Source: Trypanosoma brucei (lineage: Eukaryota). From it: DNA of 64,000 nt. Numbering within the stretch: position 1 is the first letter of the stretch; each line of letters opens with the position of its first letter. A model generated the notes under the pieces. It did no database searches. It was not told the DNA's origin and worked only from the letters and a program-made list of their open reading frames with translations. The stretch lies in the NCBI GenBank assembly GCA_000002445.1, contig CM000207.1, positions 2,656,001 to 2,720,000 on the forward strand, read 5' to 3'. Below are positions 430 through 42,999 of the stretch, one piece after another. Both the position numbers and the translations under genes were made by a program.

Positions 430-760
430 CATCTCCATGTTTAAGATAACATACATCGTCATATTAGTGTTTGATACTGTATATATTCCCTCCCCATATA
501 TCGCTCTTCTAATTATTTCTCCCCTACTATTACTACAAGTGCATCTATTTTATCATTATCATACACATTTTGCACTTGCCCTATTCCAATATCAGTACAC
601 ACACACACACAGAACATTTTTCTCTTATTATTATTATTATTATTATTACTATTATTATTACTATTATTATTATTCTCATCCTCATTACTGCTCTTATTAT
701 AATATTAGTATAGTCACACTCACAACATACTACTATTACTACTATTTCTAATACTCTCAT
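430..760 (-). repeat. VSG-associated 70-bp repeat tract (TAA/TGA triplet run plus GT-rich GAGAGTGTTGTGAGTGTG-like block), inverted orientation; outer end of the left arm of a large inverted repeat
   Basis: (ATT)n/(TAA)n run 620-700 followed by CACTCACAACAT block. Reverse complement resembles the 70-bp repeats at 7545-7700, 11560-11725 and others. Translation gives an artefactual poly-Tyr ORF (437..751). Confidence 0.6.
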
Positions 761-1193
761 ACCCTAACTAATATCCGTAAAATCGACAAAAACTAAAAAA
801 AAAGAATGTTGCTTATTAGTACACGCATTTCATACACTAACATCATACTTTACACCTATAGACTACTATTATATTAAAATTTTGTATTTTTAATATCTTT
901 ATCATTTACACATCTTCATAAATTTTAAAATTGAGCAAAAAATTCACTAGAAGTTTCAAAATACCACACAACTCATAAAGACAATTATAATCAGAAATAA
1001 TTATTATTTACAAGGAACCTGTAGTCTTTGAAAGCATTATTTTCCTATTTTCAATTGCTAGTGCAATCTCTCTGTTGGTTATATTTGCATTTTGAAGAAG
1101 TTTGCGTCCCTTCAGTTCCTGTTTGTATTGCTGTTTTCTATATTGCTTTCGTGTTAGATTTGCAGTTTTTTCCATCCTTCTCACTTTTTTAAA
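761..1193 (-). other. Inverted copy of the ingi-flanking sequence (VSG 3'-flank-like, AT-rich); reverse complement is nearly identical to 7127-7545
   Basis: Sampled stretches are exact reverse-complement matches, e.g. 961-1010 vs 7288-7345 and 781-840 vs 7465-7530. Confidence 0.7.
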
Positions 1194-4100
1194 ATTTTCT
1201 TCGTGCCTTCGTGGGAGTTTCCCCCCACTGGCGCGACCATCAGCCATCACCGTAGAGCCCTGAGATGCTATCGGTCTGGCGACTGTGGCAGAGTCTCCCT
1301 TTTTTATTCAGCCTAACACACTCTCTATAATTTTTGTTGTAGCTCCGCAGTTGAACGGAATACAGCAGATGGGGCGAGAAGCCACCCAACCCGGACTCTC
1401 CCAAAGATGTCAATTAGCAACCCTTTTGTTTTTATTTTTGTTATTCGTTTATTATTCTCTCCCCCTCTTTCTGTTTTTGTTGCTTGTTGACTGCATACCC
1501 CCTCTGTCTCTGAGGGTGTCTGGACTATTCCTGCGTCCGGTGCTTTTCCTGCTAGCTCCACACTCGGCAATAAGGGGGAAAGTTGCAGAAAGGAAAGTGG
1601 GTTGTATAACTGTTACATTAGGGGAGGACTTCACATGCGGCCGGTTCCGTTCAACCGCAATGAGAAATTGCGCCAGCCTTTTAGAGAATCATACATCCTG
1701 CACACACACACCTTATACAGCTAACCTGACACGTAGTTCCTTCAAACCGGGACAGCTCATCAGGTGCAGCGACGTTTCTTCGCAGTCGCCGCGTTGTCTG
1801 GTAACAGCGCGCTCTACCTTCATACCGTGCATCTTATTTTGATGGAGGGTGAGGCCAGTTTTGCTAGCACACTGCCTTCAGCATGTCGGGCACACCAACA
1901 TGGATGTGTTTGTATGCGGGGAATCAGTGGCACACAATTTTGTGCTTTTGCTGCATTTAAGCTCGACTCCCTCACCTTTGTGGAAAGCCTTACAGTGTCG
2001 GATGAGAGAATCCCTGCAACTGAGCACTTTTTGACACACACCACACTGCACCTCTCCTTTCCCAGTGGCGTCAACGTTTTCCTCACGGGCACGCTTACGA
2101 GGGAATTGCACCACCACTACGGTACCGTCCTCCATCACTATGCTCTTATGTTTGAATTTCTTGTGTAGTGACCGGGAAGAGCGTGTACCGAAGCTCGTCT
2201 CGCACAGGTCACATTGAAACGGCAGCTTCCGTGTATCCTGAGAGACTGGCGCTGCTGGGGCTCTACCATCTCCTTGCAATGAGTCCTCGTTCTCTCGCCC
2301 CCTTTTCACGCGGCAACTACCGCTACCTATGCCATGTATTGTTCTAAGGTGGTGTAGTAGTGGGCCTGGTACTGCGAATTTGGAGGCACAGATGGTACAA
2401 TGAAGCACCTGCGGTCTCATCGGGACTCGTGTGCTCGATGGTAGAGGAACGATCGCCACCACTGGAGGGGGCTCCGGGGGGATATCCACTGCGGGTGTTG
2501 CATCGCCGTATTTGATCCTCCGGAGGGCATCAGCTCGCACAAAGCCATGTTTGTTTACCATGTGCGTTACAGTACTCGAGCGGCATTGGTATGTGGCATC
2601 ACATTCCGTACATTTGGTCGGTTCGGAGGTTCTCTGAAGAGTGCGTGTCGCAACAGTTGGGACTGTTTGTATTGTTGGCCCTATCGCTGCATGTTGTGGG
2701 TTGCACCATCGGCACTGTGGAGGCACACTCGGGTTGATCTTTCGCAACATCCATCCATAGTGTCTTGAAGACCCAACCCGAAAGCGTGCCAGTGCTGTTT
2801 CTTCTTCCCTCGTCAGTTCTTCTTTATGTTTTGTTGGAAAGTGGTTGCCCGTGATACCAAACCTATGAGTGTTCTCATGGACTTCTTCCGACCTAAGCAC
2901 TCGCTTCGCATAAGCAATGATGTCGGGGATCCATGTATCTCGCAACTGTGGTAAATCAGCGGCCTTTTTGGCCATTTCATCACAAACCTCATTCCGTTTC
3001 ACGCCACAATGGCCAAACACAAATTGCAGTCGGATACGTATCTTCCTTCTCTGAACTTGAAGCAGAAGCCTCCATAGTCGTCTTAGAATTGGGTCCGTTA
3101 CGGCTAGGGTGCCTGTCTGCAGTGCTGTTAACATTGACAGCGAGTCAGAGAAGATGGACAACCTGCTAGGTGTGCTTCTGTATGCCGGAAGCCATTTCAG
3201 CAGCCGTTGCAGTTCTATCTCTAATGCTACGCATTCCGCTCTGTAACTGCATGAGAGTTCCCCTGCTCCGGTTTTGGGTGCACAAATCAGCGTGTTGTTT
3301 CTATAGAGCAGGGCAGCTGCTCCGGACTTCTCACCGAGGGACACGGATCCATCAGTCCACAATTCGTAGTGCTCTCGCCGCGGTGGCTCCTTCCCCCTCC
3401 GTGCAAAATGTCGTTCAATCCACTTTTCGGAAGCCTCCCTTTTGACATCGTCAGGGTCATCAGCGCACACAGGCTTTATCTGCGTGTGAAATAGCGGTCG
3501 GCAGCTGTGGCGGAGCGTCGATGTCTCCAGTGGGTGCTCGCGTGGCTCAATGTGGAGAAGAGGGTACGACAGCATGATGCGGGAATGTTGGGCTCTGACT
3601 GGGTGTTTGCTGTGGTATACTTCTTCAGCACTGCGCCGCAAACATCCGCCTCGTGACTCACACATCAGCATGAATTTCATGCTGTGCACAAGAGTGGCCG
3701 TCTTGAGTGGCAGGAGGTTTGCTTCCAGCAGAGAGTCCTCTTTGCGCGTCCCATGCGGTATGCCGGCTATGATGCGACTGGCTTTGTGTTGTGCTGCTGC
3801 AAGGAGGTCGCGACTTCGTTCCGAAGCGTCCCAGTACCATACCTCAATGCCATACATGGTGTGTGCCTGTACGAGTGCTAGATAAAAAGCTCTCAGCACT
3901 TGTCGTCTTGGCCCCCATGTAGAAGCTGAGATGGCTGCTATCTGCAGTAGTCGGAAGTCCATCTTGCGTCTCGTTTCGGCCGCATGTGTTGCCATCCCCT
4001 GCAGACGCTGGAATGTTACTCCGAGAAGCTTCGGTGTCCTGTCAGCTCCTATTCTTTCGCCGTCCAGTTGCAATGTAAGGGGATGGCGCTCTGTACACCC

Positions 4101-6440
4101 CAAGAGTGTGCACTTTGTTTTTCGCTACGTTGACAGACATAAAGTACTCTTTTGACCACTGTAACACAACGTTTAGGCCGCATTGCAGTGTGTGGTTGAT
4201 GACATCCCTCTCTGTGTGCCTCGCAAGTAGCGTTAGGTCGTCTGCAAAGAATCCGTGCTGCAGTAACGGCACTTCTGCAAGGCGTTGGCTCAACGAGTTC
4301 ATGACAATAATGAACATGATTGGGCCAAGGACAGTTCCTTGTGGCACTCCTCGCTCAAATGTTCTGCTTCTGGAAAGCTTCTCCTTGAATCTCACTCTGC
4401 CAGTTCGGTTACTCAGAAATGATACGCACCACTTCACAATGTAGGGTGATACCTTCATTCTGTGCATTTCCCTCGCAATTTTGTCGTGGTCTACTGTATC
4501 GAATGCCTTCGCGTAGTCAACGAATACAGCACCCGTACGAGATTGGTGCGTGGGACGGCAGAGGGCAGCGCGGACGTGCAGGAGTTGTTCGAGTGTTGAG
4601 CATCCGGGGCGAAAGCCTGATTGCTGCGGCGTCAGCTGGGACTCAACAGTGTCTCTATGCCTCGCGGCAATTATGCGCTCCATGACTTTGCAGAGACAGC
4701 TCGTGAGCGTCACAGGCCTGTAAGAATCGAGGTCCTCCGCCTTTTTTCCGGCCTTCAGGATGGGGATGATAACACCAATCTTCCATGCAGGCAGCACGAC
4801 TCCCGTTCGTAGGCTCTCATTGAATAGCCTTAGAACAACATTCAGCGCTGTTCTGCCGAGATATTGCAGTGCCTCGTTGTATAAGCAATCAGGTCCGGCT
4901 GCGGATCCACTCGGAAGTAGTTTGATCGATCTCCGTAGTTCAGCCATCGTGATGGGACTGAACTCACTCGCTATCGTCTTTATGGGTGCTGGTGGGTGTG
5001 AGTCGGGGTGCCTTCTTGCACGGGACGAGTACAGTTTACTGAACCTCTCAGCTTGACGGTAGTCCGTGATGGCCGCGTTATCAACAAGTACCGCCAGTGT
5101 GGTTAGTGGTCGTGGCGCATATACCTTCTTGACAATGTGCCAACTGCAGCGGTCTGACACCGCAAGTCTGGAGCATAGCGTTCTCCATCTCTTCTTTGTG
5201 GTACGGTCCAGGATCTGCTTACGCGTGGCTACCAACATTTCCCTTCGGTGGGAGGGTCCGCATCCAGCGATCTCTTCATCGAGTTTAGTGAGCGTTGGTG
5301 TCCAATGTGGTGGCGTTGCTCTGCAGCCACGGGGGACGAACATCTTCGTCGCAATGCGGATGGCGGAGCTCAATTTCTGTTCCAGGGTGTTGACGTTCTT
5401 CTCTCTACCAATTTTCCTGCAGAGCTCGTCAACCTTGAGACGGAAATTCCTCCAGTTAGCTTTTAGCCATACGTACATGGGCATTCGAGGCCGCGTGCAA
5501 CTCAGTGCATCTGTGTCGTCTCCAACGATAACGTCGAAAAATATGTTATGGTGATCGCTATCGGGAGAATACAGCGATGTCCACGTGTACACTGTGCAAT
5601 TCCTTGACAGTGTCACATCAAGGGTAGATTCCCCGTGGTGGCGCGCGTACCTGGTGCACTCACCAGTGTTGCAGACCAGAAACTGGTTGTCAATGCACCA
5701 CTGTGTGAGGGTTTCACCCTTGGTATTTGGTGGGCTCGTGCGATCCCATGCCAACGCGTGTGCGTTAGCGTCTGCACCGATGAGCTGGGCACCGTCAGTT
5801 GTCAGAAGCGTATCTAGGTCAGTTGCCGTGAAGGTGTGTTTTGGTGGGATGTATGCCGACGTGACAGTCAGCGCCGTTCCACGTGCAAGGTGAATTGTTG
5901 CATGCACTTGTTCAATGCGACCAACAACGGCCATACCGGTCTCGACTAGTAAGTCCTCCCTCACTAGTATTGATACACCACCTCCTTTGCAGTTACGAGC
6001 TATTCCGTGATGTTGGTAGCCAGCAACGCTAAAGCAAGCCTCCTCTCCAAGCGTCATCCTTGTCTCGCTCAACAGACAAAAGGCGATCCGCTCATCAACA
6101 AGGGTTTTGTGGAGTGCTAATCTCTTTCCTTGAGATAGCCCGGCGCAGTTCCACTGCATCCCGCGCAACGACGGGCCGGGATTCTCTTCCACATCACCGG
6201 ACAGCAGCATCTTAGTGCGGATGATACTGCTGATGGCACGCTTTGACGTGCCCAGGGACCGACAAATGAAAAACGGTGTCCCAGCAAGACGCTGCTGATC
6301 CCTGTGCTGTATCATCGGGGAAAGCCAAGAGGCAGCAGTGTTTCCCATGAAAGGAACGCTGCTAGCTCTTGGCTTCCCCCGATGATACGGGGTACTGGAT
6401 CCTGGCACCACGTTGAGGTGCCTGACATGCGGAAGGCAGT
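1194..6440 (-). mobile_element. ingi non-LTR (LINE-like) retrotransposon, full length (~5.25 kb), degenerate (one frameshift and a premature stop)
   Basis: Two overlapping minus-strand ORFs (4042..6462 and 1878..4103). They encode an N-terminal APE-type endonuclease, a 2A-like GDVEENPGP motif, a reverse transcriptase with an FADD box, an RNase H-like region and four C2H2 zinc fingers. About 98% identical at protein level to the element at 34021-39272. The 3' end (GAAGAAAATTTTAAAAAA, read as a T-run at 1194-1199) matches ingi 3' ends. Confidence 0.9.
1878..4103 (-). CDS. ingi ORF, C-terminal part: RT thumb, RNase H-like (ELWTDGS) and C2H2 zinc fingers. It ends ~50 codons early, at a TGA where the other copy reads TGCGGAAGG.
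   Basis: 741-aa ORF in the track, in a different frame from the 4042..6462 ORF. Zinc-finger motifs seen: HCTICASKF...HHLRTIHG, CDLCETSFGTRSSRSLHKKFKH, CGVCQKVLSCRDSLIRHCKAFH. Confidence 0.8.
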   Translation of the reverse strand: MGCTERHPLTLQLDGERIGADRTPKLLGVTFQRLQGMATHAAETRRKMDFRLLQIAAISASTWGPRRQVLRAFYLALVQAHTMYGIEVWYWDASERSRDLLAAAQHKASRIIAGIPHGTRKEDSLLEANLLPLKTATLVHSMKFMLMCESRGGCLRRSAEEVYHSKHPVRAQHSRIMLSYPLLHIEPREHPLETSTLRHSCRPLFHTQIKPVCADDPDDVKREASEKWIERHFARRGKEPPRREHYELWTDGSVSLGEKSGAAALLYRNNTLICAPKTGAGELSCSYRAECVALEIELQRLLKWLPAYRSTPSRLSIFSDSLSMLTALQTGTLAVTDPILRRLWRLLLQVQRRKIRIRLQFVFGHCGVKRNEVCDEMAKKAADLPQLRDTWIPDIIAYAKRVLRSEEVHENTHRFGITGNHFPTKHKEELTREEETALARFRVGSSRHYGWMLRKINPSVPPQCRWCNPQHAAIGPTIQTVPTVATRTLQRTSEPTKCTECDATYQCRSSTVTHMVNKHGFVRADALRRIKYGDATPAVDIPPEPPPVVAIVPLPSSTRVPMRPQVLHCTICASKFAVPGPLLHHLRTIHGIGSGSCRVKRGRENEDSLQGDGRAPAAPVSQDTRKLPFQCDLCETSFGTRSSRSLHKKFKHKSIVMEDGTVVVVQFPRKRAREENVDATGKGEVQCGVCQKVLSCRDSLIRHCKAFHKGEGVELKCSKSTKLCATDSPHTNTSMLVCPTC

Positions 6441-6462
6441 GTGCTAGCAAAACTGGCCTCAC
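4042..6462 (-). CDS. ingi ORF, N-terminal part: AP-endonuclease domain, 2A-like peptide (GDVEENPGP at ~6171-6198) and most of the RT domain. Truncated by a frameshift near 4042-4103. The extreme 5' end of the listed ORF reads through the fold-back junction and is not genuine.
   Basis: 806-aa ORF in the track. Motifs seen: MQWNCAGL...LSETRMT (endonuclease), FRPGCST, VFVDYAKAFDTVDHD, FADDLTLLA (RT). Confidence 0.8.
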   Translation of the reverse strand: MRPVLLAHCLPHVRHLNVVPGSSTPYHRGKPRASSVPFMGNTAASWLSPMIQHRDQQRLAGTPFFICRSLGTSKRAISSIIRTKMLLSGDVEENPGPSLRGMQWNCAGLSQGKRLALHKTLVDERIAFCLLSETRMTLGEEACFSVAGYQHHGIARNCKGGGVSILVREDLLVETGMAVVGRIEQVHATIHLARGTALTVTSAYIPPKHTFTATDLDTLLTTDGAQLIGADANAHALAWDRTSPPNTKGETLTQWCIDNQFLVCNTGECTRYARHHGESTLDVTLSRNCTVYTWTSLYSPDSDHHNIFFDVIVGDDTDALSCTRPRMPMYVWLKANWRNFRLKVDELCRKIGREKNVNTLEQKLSSAIRIATKMFVPRGCRATPPHWTPTLTKLDEEIAGCGPSHRREMLVATRKQILDRTTKKRWRTLCSRLAVSDRCSWHIVKKVYAPRPLTTLAVLVDNAAITDYRQAERFSKLYSSRARRHPDSHPPAPIKTIASEFSPITMAELRRSIKLLPSGSAAGPDCLYNEALQYLGRTALNVVLRLFNESLRTGVVLPAWKIGVIIPILKAGKKAEDLDSYRPVTLTSCLCKVMERIIAARHRDTVESQLTPQQSGFRPGCSTLEQLLHVRAALCRPTHQSRTGAVFVDYAKAFDTVDHDKIAREMHRMKVSPYIVKWCVSFLSNRTGRVRFKEKLSRSRTFERGVPQGTVLGPIMFIIVMNSLSQRLAEVPLLQHGFFADDLTLLARHTERDVINHTLQCGLNVVLQWSKEYFMSVNVAKNKVHTLGVYRAPSPYIATGRRKNRS

Positions 6463-7126
6463 CCTCCATCAAAATAAGATGCACGGTATGAAGGTAGAGC
6501 GCGCTGTTACCAGACAACGCGGCGACTGCGAAGAAACGTCGCTGCACCTGATGAGCTGTCCCGGTTTGAAGGAACTACGTGTCAGGTTAGCTGTATAAGG
6601 TGTGTGTGTGCAGGATGTATGATTCTCTAAAAGGCTGGCGCAATTTCTCATTGCGGTTGAACGGAACCGGCCGCATGTGAAGTCCTCCCCTAATGTAACA
6701 GTTATACAACCCACTTTCCTTTCTGCAACTTTCCCCCTTATTGCCGAGTGTGGAGCTAGCAGGAAAAGCACCGGACGCAGGAATAGTCCAGACACCCTCA
6801 GAGACAGAGAGGGTATGCAGTCAACAAGCAACAGGAACAGAAAGAGGGGGAGAGAATAATAAACGAATAACAAAAATCAAAACAAAAGGATTGCTAATTG
6901 ACATCTTTGGGAGAGTCCGGGTTGGGTGGCTTCTCGCCCCATCTGCTGTATTCCGTTCAACTGCGGAGCTACAACAAAAATTATAGAGAGTGTGTTAGGC
7001 TGAATAAAAAAGGGAGACTCTGCCACAGTCGCCAGACCGATAGCATCTCAGGGCTCTACGGTGATGGCTGATGGTCGCGCCAGTGGGGGGAAACTCCCAC
7101 GAAGGCACGAAGAAAATTTTAAAAAA
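6424..7126 (+). mobile_element. Partial ingi: last ~690 bp (end of ORF plus 3'UTR) in plus orientation, fused head-to-head to the 5' end of the minus-strand ingi
   Basis: ORF 6413..6598 (CLTCGRQCASKTGLTLHQNKMHGMKVERAV...) equals the ingi ORF C-terminus at 38575-38741. Sequence 6600-7126 is nearly identical to 38745-39272 and ends GAAGAAAATTTTAAAAAA (7121-7126). Confidence 0.85.
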
Positions 7127-7544
7127 GTGAGAAGGATGGAAAAAACTGCAAATCTAACACGAAAGCAATATAGAAAACAGCAATACAAACAGGAACTGAA
7201 GGGACGCAAACTTCTTCAAAATGCAAATATAACCAACAGAGAGATTGCACTAGCAATTGAAAATAGGAAAATAATGCTTTCAAAGACTACAGGTTCCTTG
7301 TAAATAATAATTATTTCTGATTATAATTGTCTTTATGAGTTGTGTGGTATTTTGAAACTTCTAGTGAATTTTTTGCTCAATTTTAAAATTTATGAAGATG
7401 TGTAAATGATAAAGATATTAAAAATACAAAATTTTAATATAATAGTAGTCTATAGGTGTAAAGTATGATGTTAGTGTATGAAATGCGTGTACTAATAAGC
7501 AACATTCTTTTTTTTTAGTTTTTGTCGATTTTACGGATATTAGT

Positions 7545-7700
7545 TAGGGTATGAGAGTATTAGAAATAGTAGTAATAGGAGAGTGTTGTGAATGTATATA
7601 CGAATATTATAATAAGAGCAGTAATAATAGTAATAATGATAATAATAATGATAGAAAGGGGTTGTGAGTGTGTTTTATTATTATTGGGAGATTTATGATA
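7545..7700 (+). repeat. 70-bp repeat (plus orientation), right arm of the inverted repeat; upstream boundary of the VSG 8635-10215 cassette
   Basis: GGAGAGTGTTGTGAATGTATATACGAATATTATAATAAGAGCAGTAATAATAGTAATAATGATAATAATAATGATAG ... GTTGTGAGTGTG. Confidence 0.8.
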
Positions 7701-8634: not shown

Positions 8635-10215
8635 ATGCACACCGCACTAATTTGCGCGGTATTACTTACAATGGCGATGGTGTTGCGACAGCAGGCACAA
8701 GGTGCCGTGAAAGACAACGAACACGGCGGTGATTGTGCCGCCCTTTGTGGCCTCATCCAATTTGCCGAACCAAATACGCCAGCTATCAGCCTTCCTCAAG
8801 AGATAACAGAAATAGCTGACGAACTGTTGGCAGTGAACCTGAGCATGAGCGAAGCTGCACTTCAGCAACTAGTAACAAAGCACAAAGACAAGAGCTGGGA
8901 TGACATTCCAGCCAGCGACAAACCAGCCGCACAACCTTACAAGGAGCACTGGCAGCACTGGCAAAAGTTGGCAGCAGACCCAAAACCGGAAACTGTAAAA
9001 TTCAAACTAGAGCAGTTCAGAAAAGTCAGTCAAAACACCATGGCAAAAAACAAATTTCATCTTATAGCTGACGCGGCGTTGGAGTTAGCGACAGAGGCAA
9101 AAATGCTACTGCAGAAGAAAACCAAAACGGATATAGACACAAAACTAACAAAAGCACTAAATGGCAACAATGCACCCACAAACACGTTCACGTTTTCAGG
9201 CAAGACCCGATCGCAACTGTGCGGAACTGGAACGACAACACCTGGAGAACAAGCCGGAAAGGCGTTATTGGTTGACCTTTTGTGCATTTGTGCGGGTGCC
9301 AATACAGATACCACAGCAGGCAAAAGCTGCTGCAAGGGATGCGAAACAAACCCAAACCACGATGAGTGGCAACCAGCTACAAACGCCAAACTACGAGCCG
9401 AACACATAGCCAAGCAATGCCCAACCACAAGGGCAACAGCAGATAAGAGCACAACAAAGCTCCACCACCTGCTAGGAGATTTCTATACGCAAGTAAACAC
9501 GGCAAAAGGCACAGGACAAGAGATGAAATACGCCCTCGGAACTGTCGGCGGCAACGGAAACGACGGTTGCACCGGCAAGGTAGGAAGCACCAACAACGGC
9601 AGATGCGTCAAGTACACGGACAACAGCATTCTTAAGGGGACACCGCAACTTGACTGGGTGCAGAACCTCATCGACGCCGCTGCCGACTATGACGCAAGGA
9701 CAGACAACATGAACAAGATACAACGGATAGCGGATAAAATGGAGGTACTAAACAAAACCGCAACAGCATTGCTTTGGGAACAACAGCCAGTCCCAATCCT
9801 CCAAACAAAAGCGGCAACAACTACAACTCATCAAACAGCAGAGGAGACAAAACAAGAATGTAAGGCGATAACGAAAGCAGCTGACTGCAACAGCAATGGA
9901 AACTGCAAATGGACCAAACCAGACGTAAAAACAGGAACTCACTGCGAATTAAATACGACAACGAGCGAACAAGCAGCCCAAACAGGCGGAGGAGCTGCAG
10001 GAGCAACCACAACTGTAAAATGCTCTGATTATGGCACGAAAGACAAATGCGAAGAAGTCAACAAAGGAAAAGACAAACCTGTCTGCGGCTGGAGAATAGG
10101 CAAAGATAATGAAGATGATAAAGGTACAGAAAAATGCCGTGATTCCTCTATTCTACCAAACAAACACTTCGCCCTCAGCGTGGTTTCTGCTGCATTTGCG
10201 GCCTTGCTTTTTTAA
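8635..10215 (+). CDS. VSG: Variant surface glycoprotein (VSG), apparently intact (526 aa): N-terminal signal peptide, Cys-rich C-terminal domain, GPI-anchor signal
   Basis: Single uninterrupted ORF. N-terminus MHTALICAVLLTMAMVLRQQAQG. C-terminus ...CGWRIGKDNEDDKGTEKCRDSSILPNKHFALSVVSAAFAALLF*. 70-bp repeat ~900 bp upstream and 16-mer 3'UTR element downstream. Confidence 0.9.
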   Translation: MHTALICAVLLTMAMVLRQQAQGAVKDNEHGGDCAALCGLIQFAEPNTPAISLPQEITEIADELLAVNLSMSEAALQQLVTKHKDKSWDDIPASDKPAAQPYKEHWQHWQKLAADPKPETVKFKLEQFRKVSQNTMAKNKFHLIADAALELATEAKMLLQKKTKTDIDTKLTKALNGNNAPTNTFTFSGKTRSQLCGTGTTTPGEQAGKALLVDLLCICAGANTDTTAGKSCCKGCETNPNHDEWQPATNAKLRAEHIAKQCPTTRATADKSTTKLHHLLGDFYTQVNTAKGTGQEMKYALGTVGGNGNDGCTGKVGSTNNGRCVKYTDNSILKGTPQLDWVQNLIDAAADYDARTDNMNKIQRIADKMEVLNKTATALLWEQQPVPILQTKAATTTTHQTAEETKQECKAITKAADCNSNGNCKWTKPDVKTGTHCELNTTTSEQAAQTGGGAAGATTTVKCSDYGTKDKCEEVNKGKDKPVCGWRIGKDNEDDKGTEKCRDSSILPNKHFALSVVSAAFAALLF

Positions 10216-33730: not shown

Positions 33731-34043
33731 AAATTTTAATATGATTGCTGCTGATTTTGTGAGATTTCTATTATCAGGAATTTTGCTCAATTTCACAAAA
33801 TTTGCCATTAACGGAGATTTATCTATATTTGGTAAAATATGAAATATTTTAAAAACCATTTAATAAAATGCATAAACTACATAAATTAATAAAAATTTTA
33901 CGTATAACATTTTGTTATGAAAGTGGAATATTTTTTCAAAGTAATGGGCAAATAGGGTATGAAAATGAATCATATTAATAAACTGTTCGAATTATGTTAA
34001 CTAGTAATAGTAAGAATGCCTTCCGCATGTCTGGCACCTCAAC

Positions 34044-37000
34044 GTGGTGCCATGGTCCAGTACCCCGTATCATCGGGGGAAGCCAAGAGCTAGCAGCGTT
34101 CCTTTCATGGGAAACACTGCTGCCTCTTGGCTTTCCCCGATGATACAGCACAGGGATCAGCAGCGTCTTGCTGGGACACCGTTTTTCATTTGTCGGTCCC
34201 TGGGCACGTCAAAGCGTGCCATCAGCAGTATCATCCGCACTAAGATGCTGCTGTCCGGTGATGTGGAAGAGAATCCCGGCCCGTCGTTGCGCGGGATGCA
34301 GTGGAACTGCGCCGGGCTATCTCAAGGAAAGAGATTAGCACTCCACAAAACCCTTGTTGATGAGCGGATCGCCTTTTGTCTGTTGAGCGAGACAAGGATG
34401 ACGCTTGGAGAGGAGGCTTGCTTTACCGTTTCTGGCTACCAACATCACGGAATAGCTCGTAACTGCAAAGGAGGTGGTGTATCAATACTAGTGAGGGAGG
34501 ACTTACTAGTCGAGACCGGTATGGCCGTTGTTGGTCGCATTGAACAAGTGCATGCAACAATTCACCTTGCACGTGGAACGGCGCTGACTGTCACGTCGGC
34601 ATACGTCCCACCAAAACACACCTTCACGGCAACTGACCTAGATACGCTTCTGACAACTGACGGTGCCCAGCTCATCGGTGCAGACGCTAACGCACACGCG
34701 TTGGCATGGGATCGCACGAGCCCACCAAATACCAAGGGTGAAACCCTCACACAGTGGTGCATTGACAACCAGTTTCTGGTCTGCAACACTGGTGAGTGCA
34801 CCAGGTACGCGCGCCACCACGGGGAATCTACCCTTGATGTGACACTGTCAAGGAATTGCACAGTGTACATGTGGACATCGCTGTATTCTCCAGATAGCGA
34901 TCACCATAACATATTTTTCGACGTTATCGTTGGAGACGACACAGATGCACTGAGTTGCACGCGGCCTCGAATGCCCATGTACGTATGGCTAAAAGCTGAC
35001 TGGAGGAATTTCCGTCTCAAGGTTGACGAGCTCTGCAGGAAAATTGGTAGAGAGAAGAACGTCAATACCCTGGAACAGAAATTGAGCTCCGCCATCCGCA
35101 TTGCGACGAAGATGTTCGTCCCCCGTGGCTGCAGAGCAACGCCACCACATTGGACACCAACGCTCACTAAACTCGATGAAGAGATCGCTGGATGCGGACC
35201 CTCCCACCGAAGGGAAATGTTGGTAGCCACGCGTAAGCAGATCCTGGACCGTACCACAAAGAAGAGATGGAGAACGCTATGCTCCAGACTTGCGGTGTCA
35301 GACCGCTGCAGTTGGCACATTGTCAAGAAGGTATATGCGCCACGACCACTAACCACACTGGCGGTACTTGTTGATAACGCGGCCATCACGGACTACCGTC
35401 AAGCTGAGAGGTTCAGTAAACTGTACTCGTCCCGCGCAAGAAGGCAACCCGACTCACACCCACCGGCACCCATAAAGACGATAGCGAGTGAGTTCAGTCC
35501 CATCACGATGGCTGAACTACGGAGATCGATCAAACTGCTTCCGACCGGATCCGCAGCCGGACCTGATTGCTTATACAACGAGGCACTGCAACATCTCGGC
35601 AGAAAAGCGCTGAATGTTGTTCTGAGGCTATTCAATGAGAGCCTACGAGCGGGAGTCGTGCTGCCTGCATGGAAGATTGGTGTTATCATCCCCATCCTGA
35701 AGGCCGGAAAAAAGGCGGAGGACCTCGATTCTTACAGGCCTGTGACGCTCACGAGCTGTCTCTGCAAAGTCATGGAGCGCATAATTGCCGCGAGGCTTAG
35801 AGACACTGTTGAGTCCCAGCTGACGCCGCAGCAATCAGGCTTTCGCCCCGGATGCTCAACGCTCGAACAACTCCTGCACGTCCGCGCTGCCCTCTGCCGT
35901 CCCACGCACCAACATCGTACGGGTGCTGTATTCGTTGACTACGAGAAGGCATTCGATACAGTAGACCACGACAAAATTGCGAGGGAAATGCACAGAATGA
36001 AGGTATCACCCTACATTGTGAAGTGGTGCGTATCATTTCTGAGTAACCGAACTGGCAGAGTGAGATTCAAGGAGAAGCTTTCCAGAAGCAGAACATTTGA
36101 GCGAGGAGTGCCAAAAGGAACTGTCCTTGGCCCAATCATGTTCATTATTGTCATGAACTCGTTGAGCCAACGCCTTGCAGAAGTGCCGTTACTGCAGCAC
36201 GGATTCTTTGCAGACGACCTAACGCTACTTGCGAGGCACACAGAGAGGGATGTCATCAACCACACACTGCAATGCGGCCTCAACGTGGTGTTACAGTGGT
36301 CAAAAGAGTACTTTATGTCTGTCAACGTAGCGAAAACAAAGTGCACACTCTTCGGGTGTACAGAGCGCCATCCCCTTACATTGCAACTGGACGGCGAAAG
36401 AATAGGAGCTGACAGGACACCGAAGCTTCTCGGAGTAACATTCCAGCGTCTGCATGGGATGGCAACACATGCAGCCGAAACGAGACGCAAGATGGACTTC
36501 AGAATACTGCAGATAGCAGCCATCTCAGCTTCTACATGGGGGCCAAGACGACAAGTGCTGAGAGCTTTTTATCTAGCACTCGTACAGGCACACACCATGT
36601 ATGGCATTGAGGTATGGTACTGGGACGCTTCGGAACGAAGTCGCGACCTCCTTGCAGCAGCACAACACAAAGCCAGTCGCATCATAGCTGGCATACCGCA
36701 TGGGACGCGCAAAGAGGACTCTCTGCTGGAAGCAAACCTCCTGCCACTCAAGACGACCACTCTTGTGCGCAGCATGAAATTCATGCTGATGTGTGAGTCA
36801 CGAGGCGGATGTTTGCGGCGCAGTGCTGAAGAAGTATACCACAGCAAACACCCAGTCAGAGCCCTACATTCCCGCATCATGCTGTCGTACCCTCTTCTCC
36901 ACATTGAGCCACGCGAGCACCCACTAGAGACATCGACGCTCCGCCACAGCTGCCGACCGCTATTTCACACGCAGATAAAGCCTGTGTGCGCTGATGACCC

Positions 37001-37382
37001 TGACGATGTCAAAAGGGAGGCTTCCGAAAAGTGGATTGAACGGCATTTTGCACGGAGGGGGAAGGAGCCACCGCGACGAGAGCACTACGAATTGTGGACT
37101 GATGGATCCGTGTCCCTCTGTGAGAAGTCCGGAGCAGTTGCTCTGCTCTATAAAAACAATACGCTTATTTGTGCACCCAAAACCGGAGCAGGGGAAATCT
37201 CATGCAGTTACAGAGCGGAATGCGTAGCATTAGAGATAGAACTGCAACGGCTGCTGAAATGGCTTCCGGCATACAGAAGCACACCGAGCAGGTTGTCCAT
37301 CTTCTCTGACTCGCTGTCAATGTTAACAGCACTGCAGACAGGCCCCCTAGCCGTAACGGACCCAATTCTAAGACGACTATGA
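34044..37382 (+). CDS. ingi ORF part 1 (endonuclease, RT, RNase H-like); terminated by TGA where the other copy has TGG (Trp)
   Basis: 1112-aa ORF. ...LAVTDPILRRL* here vs ...LAVTDPILRRLWRLLLQVQRRK in ORF 1878..4103. Confidence 0.85.
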   Translation: MVPWSSTPYHRGKPRASSVPFMGNTAASWLSPMIQHRDQQRLAGTPFFICRSLGTSKRAISSIIRTKMLLSGDVEENPGPSLRGMQWNCAGLSQGKRLALHKTLVDERIAFCLLSETRMTLGEEACFTVSGYQHHGIARNCKGGGVSILVREDLLVETGMAVVGRIEQVHATIHLARGTALTVTSAYVPPKHTFTATDLDTLLTTDGAQLIGADANAHALAWDRTSPPNTKGETLTQWCIDNQFLVCNTGECTRYARHHGESTLDVTLSRNCTVYMWTSLYSPDSDHHNIFFDVIVGDDTDALSCTRPRMPMYVWLKADWRNFRLKVDELCRKIGREKNVNTLEQKLSSAIRIATKMFVPRGCRATPPHWTPTLTKLDEEIAGCGPSHRREMLVATRKQILDRTTKKRWRTLCSRLAVSDRCSWHIVKKVYAPRPLTTLAVLVDNAAITDYRQAERFSKLYSSRARRQPDSHPPAPIKTIASEFSPITMAELRRSIKLLPTGSAAGPDCLYNEALQHLGRKALNVVLRLFNESLRAGVVLPAWKIGVIIPILKAGKKAEDLDSYRPVTLTSCLCKVMERIIAARLRDTVESQLTPQQSGFRPGCSTLEQLLHVRAALCRPTHQHRTGAVFVDYEKAFDTVDHDKIAREMHRMKVSPYIVKWCVSFLSNRTGRVRFKEKLSRSRTFERGVPKGTVLGPIMFIIVMNSLSQRLAEVPLLQHGFFADDLTLLARHTERDVINHTLQCGLNVVLQWSKEYFMSVNVAKTKCTLFGCTERHPLTLQLDGERIGADRTPKLLGVTFQRLHGMATHAAETRRKMDFRILQIAAISASTWGPRRQVLRAFYLALVQAHTMYGIEVWYWDASERSRDLLAAAQHKASRIIAGIPHGTRKEDSLLEANLLPLKTTTLVRSMKFMLMCESRGGCLRRSAEEVYHSKHPVRALHSRIMLSYPLLHIEPREHPLETSTLRHSCRPLFHTQIKPVCADDPDDVKREASEKWIERHFARRGKEPPRREHYELWTDGSVSLCEKSGAVALLYKNNTLICAPKTGAGEISCSYRAECVALEIELQRLLKWLPAYRSTPSRLSIFSDSLSMLTALQTGPLAVTDPILRRL
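34258..34284 (+). other. 2A-like 'self-cleaving' peptide motif GDVEENPGP near the N-terminus of the ingi polyprotein
   Basis: GGTGATGTGGAAGAGAATCCCGGCCCG translates to GDVEENPGP, matching the D(V/I)ExNPGP 2A consensus. The same motif is in the first ingi (~6171-6198, minus strand). Confidence 0.8.
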
Positions 37383-37412
37383 AGGCTTCTGCTTCAAGTT
37401 CAGAGAAGGAAG

Positions 37413-38741
37413 GTGCGTATCAGACTGCAATTTGTGTTTGGCCATTGTGGCGTGAAACGGAATGAGTTTTGTAATGAAATGGCCAAAAAGGCCGCTGATT
37501 TACCACAGTTGCGAGACACATGGATCCCCGACATCATTGCTTATGCGAAGCGAGTGCTTAGGTCGGAAGAAGTCCATGAGAACACTCATAGGTTTGGTAT
37601 CACGGGCAACCACTTTCCAACAAAACATAAGGAAGAACTGACGAGGGAAGAAGAAACGGCACTGGCACGCTTTCGGGTTGGGTCTTCAAGACACTATGGA
37701 TGGATGTTGCGAAAGATCAACCCGAGTGTGCCTCCACAGTGCCGATGGTATAACCCGCAACATGCAGCGATAGGACCAACAATACAAACAGCCCCAACTG
37801 TTGCGACACGCACTCTTCAGAGAACCTCCGAACCGACCAAATGTACGGAATGTGATGCCACATACCAATGCCGCTCGAGTACTGTAACGCACATGGTAAA
37901 CAAACATGGCTTTGTGCGAGCTGATGCCCACCGGAGGATCAAATACGGCGATGCAACACCCGCAGTGGATATCCCCCCGGAGCCCCCTCCAGTGGTGGCG
38001 ATCGTTCCTTTACTATCGAGCACACGAGTCCTGATGAGACCGCAGGTGCTTCATTGTACCATCTGTGCCTCCAAATTCGCAGTACCAGGCCGACTACTAC
38101 ACCACCTTAGAACAATACATGGCATAGGTAGCGGTAGTTGCCGCGTGAAAAGGGGGCGAGAGAACGAGGACTCAGTGCAAGGAGATGGTAGAGCCCCAGC
38201 AGCGCCAGTCTCTCAGGATACACGGAAGCTGCCGTTTCAATGTGACCTGTGCGAGACGAGCTTCGGTACACGCTCTTCCCGGTCACTACACAAGAAATTC
38301 AAACATAAGAGCATAGTGACGGAGGACGGTACCGTGGTGGTGGTGCAATTCCCTCGTAAGCGTGCCCGTGAAGGAAACGTTGACGTCCCGGGGAAAGGCG
38401 AGGTGCAGTGTGGTGTGTGCCAAAAAGTGCTCAGTTGCAGGGATTCTCTCATCCGACACTGTAAGGCTTTCCACAAAGGTGAGGGAGTCGAGGTTAAATG
38501 CAGCAAAAGCACAAAATTGTGTGCCACTGATTCCCCGCATACAAATGCATCCATGTTGGTGTGCCTGACATGCGGAAGGCAGTGTGCTAGCAAAACTGGC
38601 CTCACCCTACATCAAAAGAAGATGCACGGTATGAAGGTAGAGCGCGCTGTTACCAGCCAACGCGGCGACTGCGAAGAAACGGCGCTGCACCTGATGAGCT
38701 GTCCCGGTTTGAAGGAATTACGTGTCAGGTTAGCTGTATAA
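37413..38741 (+). CDS. ingi ORF part 2 (C-terminal region with four C2H2 zinc fingers), in frame with part 1
   Basis: 442-aa ORF. Motifs seen: HCTICASKFAVPGRLLHHLRTIHG, CDLCETSFGTRSSRSLHKKFKH, CGVCQKVLSCRDSLIRHCKAFH, CLTCGRQCASKTGLTLHQKKMHG. Confidence 0.85.
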   Translation: MRIRLQFVFGHCGVKRNEFCNEMAKKAADLPQLRDTWIPDIIAYAKRVLRSEEVHENTHRFGITGNHFPTKHKEELTREEETALARFRVGSSRHYGWMLRKINPSVPPQCRWYNPQHAAIGPTIQTAPTVATRTLQRTSEPTKCTECDATYQCRSSTVTHMVNKHGFVRADAHRRIKYGDATPAVDIPPEPPPVVAIVPLLSSTRVLMRPQVLHCTICASKFAVPGRLLHHLRTIHGIGSGSCRVKRGRENEDSVQGDGRAPAAPVSQDTRKLPFQCDLCETSFGTRSSRSLHKKFKHKSIVTEDGTVVVVQFPRKRAREGNVDVPGKGEVQCGVCQKVLSCRDSLIRHCKAFHKGEGVEVKCSKSTKLCATDSPHTNASMLVCLTCGRQCASKTGLTLHQKKMHGMKVERAVTSQRGDCEETALHLMSCPGLKELRVRLAV

Positions 38742-41099
38742 GGTGAGTGTGTGCAGGATGTATGATTCTCTAAAAGGCTGGCGCAATTTCTCATTGCGGT
38801 TGAACGAAGCCGGCCGCATGTGAAGTCCTCCCCTAATGTAACAGTTATACAACCCACTTTCCTTTCTGCAACTTTCCCCCTTATTGCCGAGTGTGGAGCT
38901 AGCAGGAAAAGCACCGGACGCAGGAATAGTCCAGACACCCTCAGAGACAGAGGAGGTATGCAGTCAACAAGCAACAGGAACAGAAAGAGGGGGAGAGAAT
39001 AATAAACGAATAACAAAAATCAACACAAAAGGGTTGCTAATTGACATCTTTGGGAGAGTCCGGGTTGGGTGGCTTCTCGCCCCATCTGCTGTATTCCGTT
39101 CAACTGCGGAGCTACAACAAAAATTATAGAGAGTGTGTTAGGCTGAATAAAAAAGGGAGACTCTGCCACAGTCGCCAGACCGATAGCATCTCAGGGCTCT
39201 ACGGTGATGGCTGATGGTCGCGCCAGTGGGGGGAAACTCCCACGAAGGCACGAAGAAAATTTAAAAAAAAAATTCCTGCTCCAACCCCTGGTCTAGGACT
39301 TTTGCAGTCTTACAGATCGCTGCGAATGTCGCTGGCTCGAAAGGTTTGCCTGAGGCCTCTCCACATTTGGTTACAGCTCCGCATGGGATTGCTACTGTTG
39401 CAAAAAGTCCCTGCAGCGTTGTGCTTGCAATTGCCATGAAATCCTGGTCTTGTGTATTGTTGTAATGGAAATAGCGAGTGGGATGCGCAGGTGAGCTACT
39501 TGGCTAGGCTTGGTGTGATTTTTCCTTTAGAACCTGGGACAGGGGTGTGGTATTGGTTTCTAGCTTATCGCCGCTTGCAGCAGCTATTGTCCAGGTTACA
39601 CGGTTTATATCGGCGCTGAAGTTGTGACTGCACGCAATAACCGTATCTGTAGTCAGCTGTGAATCTGGTATGTTAATTGGGTGTCTAATAATAACCGTGC
39701 AAAACGTTGTTTTGATGCTTGACAAGTCTGTGATTTGTATTCGACGACAGTTCGTGTGCCGAGAGCGGTGGTTGGCACCGGCAATGATGTGAATTTTCCG
39801 GCGTTTACTTGCGCGCCGAGGACTGGTCCGCCAGCCCTCACCTACAACTGTGTATCCATGAATAACACGGGTAGTGCTGCCGCCAGAGGGTTAATGTGCG
39901 TTTAAATTAGTGATCACCCAGTTGTTACTAACAGAATGCATTCTTTACACATTTTTCCTGTGCCAGAAAGAGGTGACAGTGCTTTTTGCGCAAGAGCTTT
40001 GGACTGAGAATTTTAAGCTGCCGTTAGTTTTAGGGTTTGAATAGTTGAGCCATGTAATTTGCTTTCGGTTCCGACTTTCTTGATGTGGTAGAGACGCACT
40101 GAATCCCCTGGCTGAAACGTGTATTTGCAAATCGCTATGCATTTCGCCGCTACCTATAGGGTTTTGACATGTGGTAGCACAAGTTAAGTCGCCAGGGCTG
40201 CACTTTCTTAAAGGAAAAATTGTGCTGCCATTTGCTTTTTACCTAAGTAAATGAGTTTTGTTGATCAGCTATGAGTGTTTATGCTTGTATGCGCTACCGG
40301 TTGTGAAGGTCACGAGGTATAATTGTGTTTTGCGGGATTTATAATCTATCCATACACCAATGTATCAAAACATTTGGTTCTACCGCTTTCAGATAAATGT
40401 GTTAAGTTCATAAATCTTCTAAACCTCTCTATATAGAAATTTTCAATATTTATGGGTGTTTGTAGGTTTTTTATACTTTTATTTTATTTTTACAGCTTCT
40501 TTAATAACAAAGTGACGGTGAAGTTTTTATTGGAAACTATTGTTCTCCTGCTCGTGGTTCGAACTATTCCCTCCTTCACGCCAACACAAATTTAGATTTG
40601 GAAAATTGTATCCTTAAAGTGCTTTTCGTGTTGCTTTTGTTTTATTAATACAATCTGTTAGTATTGCATTAGTCACAACATTTATGTTAAATATTTGTTA
40701 CGCGAGATCTCTTAATGTCTGTTCAGTATAACAATACGGTATTGGTCTAGTGTCACAAGTAATTCTCTCTACTTAACAGTGATCCTCCGTGGTTTCATAT
40801 ACGTGGCTTCTCATTTTATTCACGGTGCTCCGTAGTAAAGCTTTAGTCAACAGCGTCTGCTTTCGCTATAACTGTGTACAACGCTGTAGCTACACTTGGT
40901 CCGTCCGTTCCTCTGCGAGTATTAATGATCTCAAACTCCAAATTCTTTTGTATGATGCTTTTTTGTTCATTTCTCCTTTTCCATAAATAATTTTTCTCAT
41001 GATAGCAGTCTTTTACTGACTCACTATCCCACTCACTCACTTAATTTGATTGTACCACTGCCACTGTTTTAAGTCTTTTTATTTTTCTATGCATTTATT

Positions 41100-41479: not shown

Positions 41480-42999
41480 CAGCATCAATCAGAGCCAATT
41501 TATTATTGAAAAGAATGCTGGAATTCTTGCAAGCATTATTTTCCCATTTGCAACCATCTTTACACTCATCTTGCTTTTTTTATCGGAGCACTTTTTGTCC
41601 TCTTTTGGTGTCTCTCCTGTTCCTGTTGATGTGTTTTTCGATCCTGTTTTAGGTTTGTACACATTATTTTCAGCATCACGATCGCATCCAAGTTTTCTGC
41701 ATTCGTCTTCTGTTTTGGCAGTGTGTTTTTCGTATTATTTTTGTGCTTCTAGTTTCTTCTTCCGCATTAAGATTTAGCGTCCTCTACTTTTTGTACTTCC
41801 TCTACGGATGTTTTGCTTCTTGAAGTTTGAATAAGATCATTGAGGCGGTTGCGATCAGTGACGTCTTTTAGTTCCTGGGTCTTCCCGCAGCTAGGATCTT
41901 CTTTTTTTGGGACTTGCGTTGATTTTACACTGTTCCAGATCAAGTTATCAAATTCTTCTTCTGAGCTCCCGTACATTTCCTTGACTTTCTGTGCTATGGA
42001 AGTTGCTTCTACTGGTGAAATTTTAGTCGCTGTTAGTTTCTTGTATATTAACCTGTAGACGTCCAGTTGTAATTCTGCGTCGCTGTGCGACTGCCATGGA
42101 TCGCAGTTGGTGTCGCTGATGCCTGTTTGCGTTAAGGCTGTAGCTATTTCGGCGTCGGCGTGGGCTATTTGTTCGGCCATTTGTTTCGTCGCAGTTGCCC
42201 ACTGTTTGGATGTTTTACCTGCTGGTTTGCCAACCGTCTTGTCTGTTGCCGAAGTTGCTGATGTGAACAACTTCCCCCCTTTCACTGCTAGCTGAGCGGC
42301 GTCAGAGCTGCCTTCGCCACAGGACGCACCCGCCGCACAACACATTGCCGCTGTCGAGGTGTGGTCGCTCGCTGCTGCTGGGTCTTGTTCTATTGTTTTC
42401 AGGTCTAACTTCCACTCCGTTCTCGCTGCAGCGGCTTTGGCCGGTGGCTGTGCTTGTTTGATGTATTCCGAAAGCGGACAGTACTTTGTTGGTATCTCTG
42501 TCTTGCCGGCCGCCGGCTTTATCTTTATAAATTTGTTGGCGGCGCTGATCGTTTTGCCGACGTCCGTGTCTATCTGCATCACTGCCATGGCCTCAAGCGC
42601 TGCAGCTGCGGCTGTCCCTTGTTCTAGGTCAATTATGACGTTGCTTGTGCGATCGCGAAACTGTTTCTTTGTTTCTTCTAATCTTAGTGAACATCGTTCG
42701 TAAAGGTTGACAATCGGTACTAACCGCCCTTTAAACCCCGCATCACTTGCTGATATCATCGCCAGTGGTGCCTGTAGTGAACGAATTTCCACCTGGGTGC
42801 TAGTATCTGCAACCGCTTGCAGCTGTTTTATCGCTTCGCCTGCGTATATAGCGTGTTCCGTGTCGTCCGTGCAATTAGGCGTGCCCTGTGCAATACTGGC
42901 TGGTAGGCGTAGACCGGCCGAAGTGAGGAAAAAAACTAGCCAAATTGACATCTGTAGCCAGTTTGCGTCTTTGTGCCTTTTTTGGTGGTCTCCCGGCAC
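41480..42999 (-). pseudogene. VSG pseudogene: N-terminal domain intact in one 410-aa ORF; C-terminal domain frameshifted or stopped
   Basis: ORF 41767..42999 (signal MSIWLVFFLTSAGL..., ends ...EEVQKVEDAKS*). Reverse-strand frames over 41500-41767 give ...DECKDGCKWENNACKNSSILFNNKLALIDAASVSLLA. Minus-strand 3'UTR at 41300-41480 with a degenerate 16-mer. Confidence 0.8.

Follow-up and report, generated by a model that had tools for sequence, protein, structure and literature searches.

The ingi locus and its inverted arms

Within the 64-kb stretch of Trypanosoma brucei DNA analysed here (the window), a full-length but defective copy of the retroposon ingi (ingi#1) is joined at its 5' end to an inverted copy of its own tail (Table 1). 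Both ingi tails are followed by the same flanking sequence, which in turn runs into 70-bp repeats, and an intact VSG lies beyond the repeats on the right.

Table 1. Features of the ingi#1 locus (positions within the window)
Feature	Position	Strand	Remarks
Left 70-bp repeat tract	604..732	-	motifs GTTGTGAGTGTG at 715-726 and ATATTATAATAAGAGCAGTAATG at 683-705, minus strand
Flank F', left-arm copy of the sequence after the ingi A-tail	733..1184	-	452 nt; 0 mismatches vs 7127-7578
ingi#1, full-length but defective	1185..6438	-	98.1% identical to ingi#2 over 5254 nt
Left-arm template, last 688 nt of ingi#1	1185-1872	-	counterpart of 6439-7126
Internal copy of the short inverted repeat	1873..1893	-	zinc-finger codons of ingi#1
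Junction overlap	6418..6438	+	same 21 nt as the ingi#2 internal site; reverse-complements the 5' terminus of ingi#1
Inverted partial ingi, last 688 nt	6439..7126	+	includes the AAAATTTTAAAAAA tail as in ingi#1
Flank F, right-arm copy	7127..7578	+	extends ~18 nt into the first 70-bp repeat unit
Right 70-bp repeat tract, outer junction zone	7579..7690	+	
Intact VSG after the right 70-bp tract	8635-10215	+	97% identical to T. brucei Lister 427 VSG-352
Chimeric string marking the joint of ingi 5' end and inverted ingi			CACCACGTTGAGGTGCCTGACATGCGGAAGGCAGTGTGCTAGC

A repeat finder delineated inverted arms at 716-1903 and 6408-7595 (1188 nt, 99% complementary, with 4504 nt between them), which BLAST and MAFFT refined to 733-1872 and 6439-7578, that is, to 1140 nt with five substitutions and no indels (99.56% identity). 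The large inverted repeat around ingi put forward in a preliminary description of the sequence is thereby borne out, with arms ~4.5 kb apart. Near-perfect identity runs from 1872 on the left (6439 on the right) to 733 (7578) and covers an ingi part of 688 nt and a flank part of 452 nt; a homopolymer of nine T/A has the same length in both arms. All five mismatches lie in the ingi part (6810, 6834, 6835, 6878 and 6890), and their clustering (P ~1e-4) calls for a further cause, such as a short conversion patch from another ingi or error-prone synthesis. Compared with ingi#2, the arms have 10 variants in common, as well as an identical A-tail, and these shared private variants identify them as copies of each other. 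The spacer (1873-6438) is the remaining body of the full-length, minus-strand ingi#1, whose 3' end, previously set at 1194, lies at 1185 when the A-tail is counted.

The 452-nt flank is unique within the window. It had been considered beforehand that this sequence might be a dispersed repeat, but the only other similarity found across the 64 kb consisted of two weak 76% matches of ~85 nt each. Copy F' contains a degenerate stretch resembling a VSG 3' end.

At the outer end, the junction falls within the first 70-bp repeat unit, where identity ends sharply and homeology goes on: beyond 7578 and 733 there are ~80 nt of homeologous 70-bp-repeat sequence (~82-88%), after which the arms are unrelated. 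Since the left tract (646-732) is only homeologous to the right one at this level, it sets the outer limit of the left arm. The arms thus do end in diverged 70-bp repeats, as first described, though the limit of identity had to be moved to 733/7578, inside the first unit. A larger, older palindrome was considered and rejected, as comparison of the whole window with itself revealed no further inverted similarity of high identity linking the plus array to the minus array.

The locus forms a divergent strand switch, with a minus-strand 70-bp repeat to the left and plus-strand VSGs to the right. The second ingi copy, ingi#2 (34017-39269), is unrearranged and sits at the convergent switch of the array, such that the two inverted ingi copies bracket the array's only plus-oriented part. 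Looked up by exact match, neither three VSG products of the window nor the nearest VSG in the database led to the locus in another assembly, and the search for VSG homologues yielded protein-database entries only, without contigs.

ingi#1 carries two ORFs in different frames, which points to a frameshift. Neither ingi#1 nor ingi#2 has a target-site duplication. No upstream flank of ingi#1 is left, as would be expected if sequence beyond a break had been lost or replaced, and the ancestral allele would be expected to read flank F, ingi, the 12-bp repeat GTGAGAAGGATG and the lost upstream sequence. No Rfam family reached its gathering score within the window; sub-threshold, microRNA-like Rfam matches at ~6300-6390 fall on a hairpin in the ingi 5' region.

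The inner junction and a short inverted repeat carried by ingi

The ingi 5' terminus reverse-complements a site in its own zinc-finger-coding sequence ~690 nt from the 3' end. The 21-nt sequence concerned, GTGCCTGACATGCGGAAGGCA, occurs four times in the window (with 0-2 mismatches) and not at all in shuffled sequences: as the reverse complement of the 5' ends of ingi#1 (6418-6438, no mismatch) and ingi#2 (34017-34037, one mismatch), and as the internal sites of ingi#2 (38561-38581, no mismatch) and ingi#1 (1873-1893, two mismatches). The overlap between terminal and internal sites is 19-21 nt, or 26-28/31 if extended, and the 31-nt extended match scores 27 as against at most 20 in shuffles. 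This short inverted repeat predates the event: in ingi#2, which is not rearranged, the two sites match at 20 of 21 positions. What counts here as the canonical ingi 5' terminus rests on two sequences, those of ingi#1 and ingi#2.

The copied arm begins at the first base past the 21-nt overlap (6439 being the complement of 1872), and within 6418-6438 the inner breakpoint cannot be placed any more finely. With two ingi copies to compare, the sole informative site of the junction, 6423, is not polarisable. A DNA duplex of 6418-6438 with 1873-1893 was calculated at ~-26 kcal/mol and the next best site in the element at -14.4, so that the internal site is predicted to be by far the best annealing partner of the 3' end within the element. 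The preliminary description had correctly located the junction at the ingi 5' terminus and its internal counterpart; the match is, however, longer than the 17 nt it gave, and what it had taken for a single self-complementary site is a pair of short inverted repeats ~4.5 kb apart.

The internal site of ingi#1 departs from the 21-nt sequence at two positions, one of which creates a TGA stop (CPTC*). Two differences within 21 nt, compared with none across 1060 nt of the arms, suggest that ingi#1 was probably already defective when the copying took place.

Origin of the inverted duplication

On the basis of these sequence features, we consider it likely that the inverted duplication is recent and a product of DNA repair or replication synthesis in a subtelomeric VSG array. 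The same evidence argues, with comparable confidence, for ~1.1 kb of DNA having been duplicated by fold-back repair at the short inverted repeat that ingi carries, which would probably make the locus another instance of a mechanism already known, with the transposon itself providing the seed. The arms are of high identity and in inverted orientation around a spacer; a short inverted repeat older than the event bounds this spacer and contains the junction; and the arms include DNA that is non-repetitive within the 64-kb window, namely the flank. Besides, a pair of junctions of which one shows microhomology and the other homeology fits templated fold-back repair synthesis. The earlier proposal of fold-back on microhomology is supported in each of its predictions that could be tested within the window.

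We infer a break, its resection, the direction of synthesis and the enzymes from the product, and the events may have run as follows. A resident, defective ingi held two inverted copies of the 19-21-nt sequence, one at its 5' terminus and one in its zinc-finger codons. A DNA break beside the ingi 5' end would have been followed by long resection, leaving a 3' single strand that terminated at the 5' boundary of ingi and could have paired with the internal site, either within the same strand or on the sister chromatid. Synthesis primed from this 3' end would have made a reverse copy of the terminal 688 nt of ingi and the adjoining 452 nt, before quitting its template inside the 70-bp repeat and being joined to, or continuing on, the 70-bp repeat belonging to a VSG cassette in plus orientation. 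This second switch must be assumed, since fold-back alone would leave a product that is dicentric or capped by a hairpin. The reverse order of junction formation would account for the final sequence equally well: a broken end in the right 70-bp repeat may have invaded the left repeat and copied 1.14 kb, to be captured at the ingi 5' end through the 21-nt microhomology.

An artefact of assembly or library preparation, whether repeats wrongly joined or a chimeric read that folds back on itself, would have to be suspected in a region like this one, as libraries that are amplified or sequenced as long reads can contain inverted chimeras, and both ingi and 70-bp repeats are difficult to assemble. 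We nevertheless regard it as unlikely. Missed-adapter chimeras are perfect, spacerless palindromes with an arbitrary breakpoint and ligation chimeras lack microhomology, whereas the arms here flank a 4.5-kb spacer and the breakpoint falls at a 21-nt microhomology; together with the five clustered arm differences, this speaks against a missed-adapter or fold-back read. Moreover, those five substitutions, with no indels even in homopolymers, indicate two separately supported sequences rather than a single locus used twice, and both junctions are free of gaps and N runs. The inverted duplication is probably real.

[quoted passage not shown] This scheme has a certain economy: a cDNA covalently joined to flank F' would have precisely the plus strand of 1184-6438, with the 21-nt sequence as its natural 3' end; removal of a flap is unnecessary; the short repeat is intrinsic to ingi; and a target-site duplication is absent. 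However, the frameshift of ingi#1 and the stop in its annealing site are probably older than the copy, which would have required the mobilisation of a dead RNA in trans. Copying of at least 452 nt of duplex target followed by joining in a 70-bp repeat also resembles host repair synthesis more, and ingi#2 bears the same short repeat yet lacks such a structure.

We give very little credence to ordinary homologous recombination or independent insertions, be it two separate ingi insertions beside copies of a repeated flank or an inversion of the 27.5-kb segment between ingi#1 and ingi#2, with the junction at the short repeat by chance: although inverted ingi copies at the divergent and convergent switches, both devoid of target-site duplications, make some ingi-mediated rearrangement of the region plausible, an inversion between 1185-6438 and 34017-39269 cannot generate the right arm and its predicted cross-matches of target sites are not significant, the ingi fragment of the right arm fits ingi#1 (five differences, 10 shared private variants) and not ingi#2 (97.8%), and a chance truncation inside the 21-nt overlap has odds of ~21 in 5250. 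Independent ingi insertions are excluded by the shared private variants, the identical A-tail and the identical flank, of which the window holds no further copy. LINE twin priming is likewise excluded, in agreement with the original reading of the locus, because the inverted piece duplicates both the tail of ingi and the adjoining flank.

Relation to known systems and to the VSG archive

Short inverted repeats near double-strand breaks give rise to palindromes and inverted duplications in Tetrahymena rDNA, in budding yeast and in the fold-back inversions of tumours. The fold-back proposed for ingi#1 would share with these systems a pre-existing short inverted repeat that anneals within one strand near a break and primes synthesis, and in the product, likewise, a spacer delimited by the short repeat separates two inverted arms, with the junction inside that repeat. 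In contrast to them, the repeat here is borne by a retroposon (5' terminus versus internal coding site), the spacer is the 4.5-kb body of the element, and copying ended after 1.14 kb at a homeologous 70-bp junction without a large palindrome; at the ingi locus, moreover, we infer the break and the proteins. In Leishmania, linear amplicons with inverted duplications reportedly form at inverted repeats in an MRE11-dependent manner. The parallels include a trypanosomatid host, an inverted duplication nucleated by retroposon-derived repeats and break processing. There, however, dispersed degenerate repeats of hundreds of bp yield extrachromosomal, drug-selected amplicons, while here a 21-nt pair within one element is associated with a small chromosomal product.

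In LINE-1 twin priming, as at ingi#1, an inverted piece of a retroelement adjoins the remainder, and the junction typically shows microhomology. Yet twin priming inverts a segment not otherwise present, does so within target-site duplications and never copies the flank, whereas the ingi locus has no target-site duplication and duplicates its own tail plus 452 nt of flank.

Chromosomal breaks in T. brucei are mended by homologous recombination or by microhomology-mediated joining, the latter using 5-20 bp, tolerating mismatches and having been proposed to act in 70-bp repeat recombination (PMC3045614), where it could begin or finish conversion tracts (PMC3045614, PMC2377438). The 19-21 nt with two mismatches at the inner junction come near this range, but the reported joining involves direct microhomologies and deletions, whereas here the microhomology is inverted and templated sequence was added (PMC3045614, PMC2377438). 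As for the product, the 1.14-kb inverted repeat is, judged by its arms, hairpin-capable. In T. brucei, siRNAs are produced from seven long, near-identical inverted repeats on the megabase chromosomes (PMC3447711). With a size range of 422-10,011 bp, at least 99% identity and separated arms, those repeats resemble the ingi locus. The latter, for its part, lies in a VSG array and has a readable mechanism.

African trypanosomes keep their antigen archive in VSG arrays, and how the order and the strand switches of these arrays come about is poorly documented at the base-pair level. The ingi#1 locus offers a readable example, with one junction at a short inverted repeat carried by a transposon and the other in the 70-bp repeat that already bounds VSG gene conversion. 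Should the chimeric junction recur at other ingi copies, ingi would be more than a passenger: it would actively shape subtelomere architecture and supply hairpin RNA. As a long shot, the T. brucei ingi family might even constitute a built-in fold-back device, its terminal/internal repeat (21-31 nt) recurrently triggering the copying of tail and adjacent DNA, at insertion or after breaks, and making VSG-array strand switches as well as hairpin loci that feed ingi-directed RNAi; its first ~16 nt, a reverse copy of its own zinc-finger codons, could then be a fossil of snap-back in reverse transcription.

Our literature search turned up neither an ingi fold-back nor a terminal/internal complementarity in ingi, and a search with sequence strings retrieved no trypanosome paper quoting the ingi 5' terminus. 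The ingi 5' signature had no hit in a metagenome scan, and a protein search with the ingi N-terminus matched only relatives from T. vivax, T. grayi, T. theileri and T. congolense. Unlike T. brucei ingi, the ingi relatives of T. cruzi, T. congolense and T. vivax have CCCTGG... termini.

Anatomy of the inverted repeat around ingi#1

In the window's first 9.5 kb, a repeat finder detected a single large inverted repeat (716-1903 and 6408-7595; 1188 nt, 99% complementary), whose structure was resolved by BLAST of this region against the whole window and by a three-way alignment. Together, these approaches confirmed, with slightly corrected coordinates, the inverted repeat that the preliminary description had placed around ingi#1, the minus-strand retroposon copy. 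The 3' ends of ingi#1 and of the right-arm ingi fragment carry an identical AAAATTTTAAAAAA tail, followed by the same 452 nt of flank. Over their full 1140 nt, the arms (733-1872 and 6439-7578) differ by five substitutions and no indels, with no substitution in the flank portion. Identity stops sharply at 7578/733, ~18 nt inside a 70-bp repeat unit, past which the arms are homeologous for ~80 nt and then unrelated.

Coordinates of ingi copies, inverted-repeat parts and complementary sites in the window
Feature	Position	Strand	Remark
ingi#1, full-length	1185-6438	minus	98.1% identity to ingi#2 over 5254 nt
ingi#2	34017-39269	plus	BLAST partner of ingi#1
Partial ingi, last 688 nt	6439-7126	plus	Directly adjoins ingi#1 5' end
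Flank copies, 452 nt	733-1184 and 7127-7578		Each beyond an ingi 3' end
70-bp repeat tract	604-726	minus	Left of ingi#1
21-mer site	6418-6438		Reverse complement of ingi#1 5' end; 0 mismatches
21-mer site	34017-34037		Reverse complement of ingi#2 5' end; 1 mismatch
21-mer site	38561-38581		ingi#2 internal, ~690 nt from 3' end; 0 mismatches
21-mer site	1873-1893		ingi#1 internal; 2 mismatches
31-nt terminal/internal pair, ingi#2	34017-34047 and 38551-38581		
31-nt terminal/internal pair, ingi#1	6408-6438 and 1873-1903		

Across 679 ingi positions (6439-7117), the arms have 10 variants in common relative to ingi#2, the plus-strand copy that is not rearranged, and differ from one another at five. 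Within the 64 kb, the flank has no further copy apart from two weak matches (76%, ~85 nt) near VSG 3' ends. The shared variants, the identical tails and a flank without further copy in 64 kb show the arms to be copies of one another, which, as far as one window allows, rules out independent ingi insertions. The five mismatches (6810, 6834, 6835, 6878 and 6890) all fall inside 81 A-rich nt (left-arm counterpart 1421-1501), a clustering with a P of about 1e-4; counting GG to AA as one event gives about 1e-3. Four of them are G/A differences; polarised against ingi#2, the derived state is on the left arm at three positions and on the right arm at two. Both error-prone repair synthesis and conversion of a short patch by another ingi would fit this cluster.

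The flank itself (7127-7320) contains a 55-codon ORF (MEKTANLTRKQY...) and, in another frame, a degenerate stretch resembling a VSG C-terminus (FKDYRFLVNNNYF, then a stop), with 76% similarity to the VSG 3' ends at 13754-13839 and 41487-41553, hinting that the insertion site of ingi#1 may have been close to the 3' end of a VSG pseudogene.

Complementarity between the ingi terminus and its interior

GTGCCTGACATGCGGAAGGCA, a 21-mer, is present at four positions of the window and absent from shuffles. As it lies both at the 5' terminus and internally, a pair of short inverted repeats, ~4.5 kb apart, is built into ingi, the unrearranged ingi#2 included. The ungapped match between terminus and interior amounts to 20-21 of 21 nt and extends to 26-28 of 31, the maximum in 30 shuffles being 20. 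At the rearranged locus, the two parent sequences overlap over exactly this 21-mer and the copy arm starts one base on. In a calculation using DNA parameters, pairing of the plus-strand 3' end (6418-6438) with 1873-1893 gave about -26 kcal/mol, compared with -14.4 for the next best site of the element.

The internal copy codes for part of a C2H2 zinc finger (CLTCGRQC). In ingi#1, it bears two substitutions (1878-1893), Leu to Pro and Gly to a TGA stop, the latter cutting the last zinc finger short right at the putative annealing site. A frameshift is also present in ingi#1, near 4042-4103.

Proposed fold-back copying and its alternatives

The fold-back duplication proposed in the preliminary description is supported by the sequence, the anatomy being what fold-back yields, with the copy arm beginning right after the 21-nt overlap. 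At the ingi 5' boundary, a 3' end of the plus strand would anneal to the complementary internal site of the same strand and be extended, copying 1872 down to 733 into 6439-7578. The left arm would have been the template, since it is the sole arm continuous with the full-length element, and the position of the outer junction inside a 70-bp repeat implies that a second switch, or homeology-based joining, would have followed there. Chromosomal breaks in T. brucei are repaired by homologous recombination or by microhomology-mediated joining, which uses 5-20 bp and tolerates mismatches, and the authors who described this joining proposed it as a way in which conversion tracts can begin or end at 70-bp repeats (PMC3045614). 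The steps may also have run in reverse order, with an end broken within the right-hand 70-bp repeat invading the inverted left-hand repeat, copying 1.14 kb and being captured at the ingi 5' end; the product would be identical to that of fold-back.

An inversion between the oppositely oriented ingi#1 and ingi#2 is plausible at the scale of the whole region, yet it would not create the right arm, and the target-site duplication cross-match that it predicts was not significant. The structure is also predicted if ingi#1 cDNA had snapped back on itself during insertion, but we consider such coupling to retrotransposition quite improbable given the frameshift and an internal annealing site with 2 differences in 21 nt, one of them the TGA stop, against 0 in 1060 nt of the arms. 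The frameshift and the concentration of differences in the annealing site suggest that ingi#1 was probably dead already when the copy arose. An artefact seems improbable, its usual kinds being argued against by the spacer of 4.5 kb, the junctional microhomology and the five clustered substitutions without indels. Twin priming, already deemed unsuitable beforehand, fails because the inverted piece duplicates both the element's own tail and the 452-nt flank.

The duplication is a new example of a well-known rearrangement class, distinctive in that the transposon itself carries the priming repeat and that the second junction lies inside a 70-bp repeat; its interest would rise if the chimeric junction proves recurrent. 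Our literature search returned no report of such a structure or of ingi terminal/internal complementarity. One published account describes seven long, near-identical inverted repeats within the core genome of T. brucei that yield siRNAs (PMC3447711).

VSG array setting and ingi 5' ends

The window is a T. brucei VSG array, in which the ORF at 8635-10215 shares 97% identity with Lister 427 VSG-352. Between ~7.6 and 34 kb, VSG ORFs and 70-bp repeat motifs have plus-strand orientation, and between 40 and 64 kb minus-strand orientation; to the left of ingi#1, there is no VSG ORF in the window, just the minus-oriented 70-bp tract. Given these orientations, the strand switch at ingi#1 is divergent and that at ingi#2 convergent. 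ingi#2 sits exactly at this plus/minus switch and probably also took part in a rearrangement; a target-site duplication was looked for at both window ingi copies and found at neither.

Both window copies begin with CCTTCCGCATGTC..., whereas CCCTGGTGAC... opens the ingi-like elements fetched from T. congolense (L001) and T. vivax (L002), and CCCTGGCTCAGCC... opens L1Tc (PMC1874656). The first 16 nt of T. brucei ingi differ from CCCTGG..., the terminus of its relatives in T. cruzi, T. congolense and T. vivax. When the 5' end of L001 or L002 was reverse-complemented and compared with its locus, allowing up to 3 mismatches, it had no other match. As far as this small sample goes, T. brucei ingi seems to be alone in having the short inverted repeat, and its 5'-most ~16 nt may have been copied in reverse from its own zinc-finger codons. 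L1Tc reportedly has a ribozyme-attenuating downstream region. Just downstream of the conserved 5' signature, both ingi copies contain a hairpin (6309-6388 and 34067-34146; 34-nt arms, 88% complementary, 12-nt loop) with sub-threshold, microRNA-like Rfam matches.
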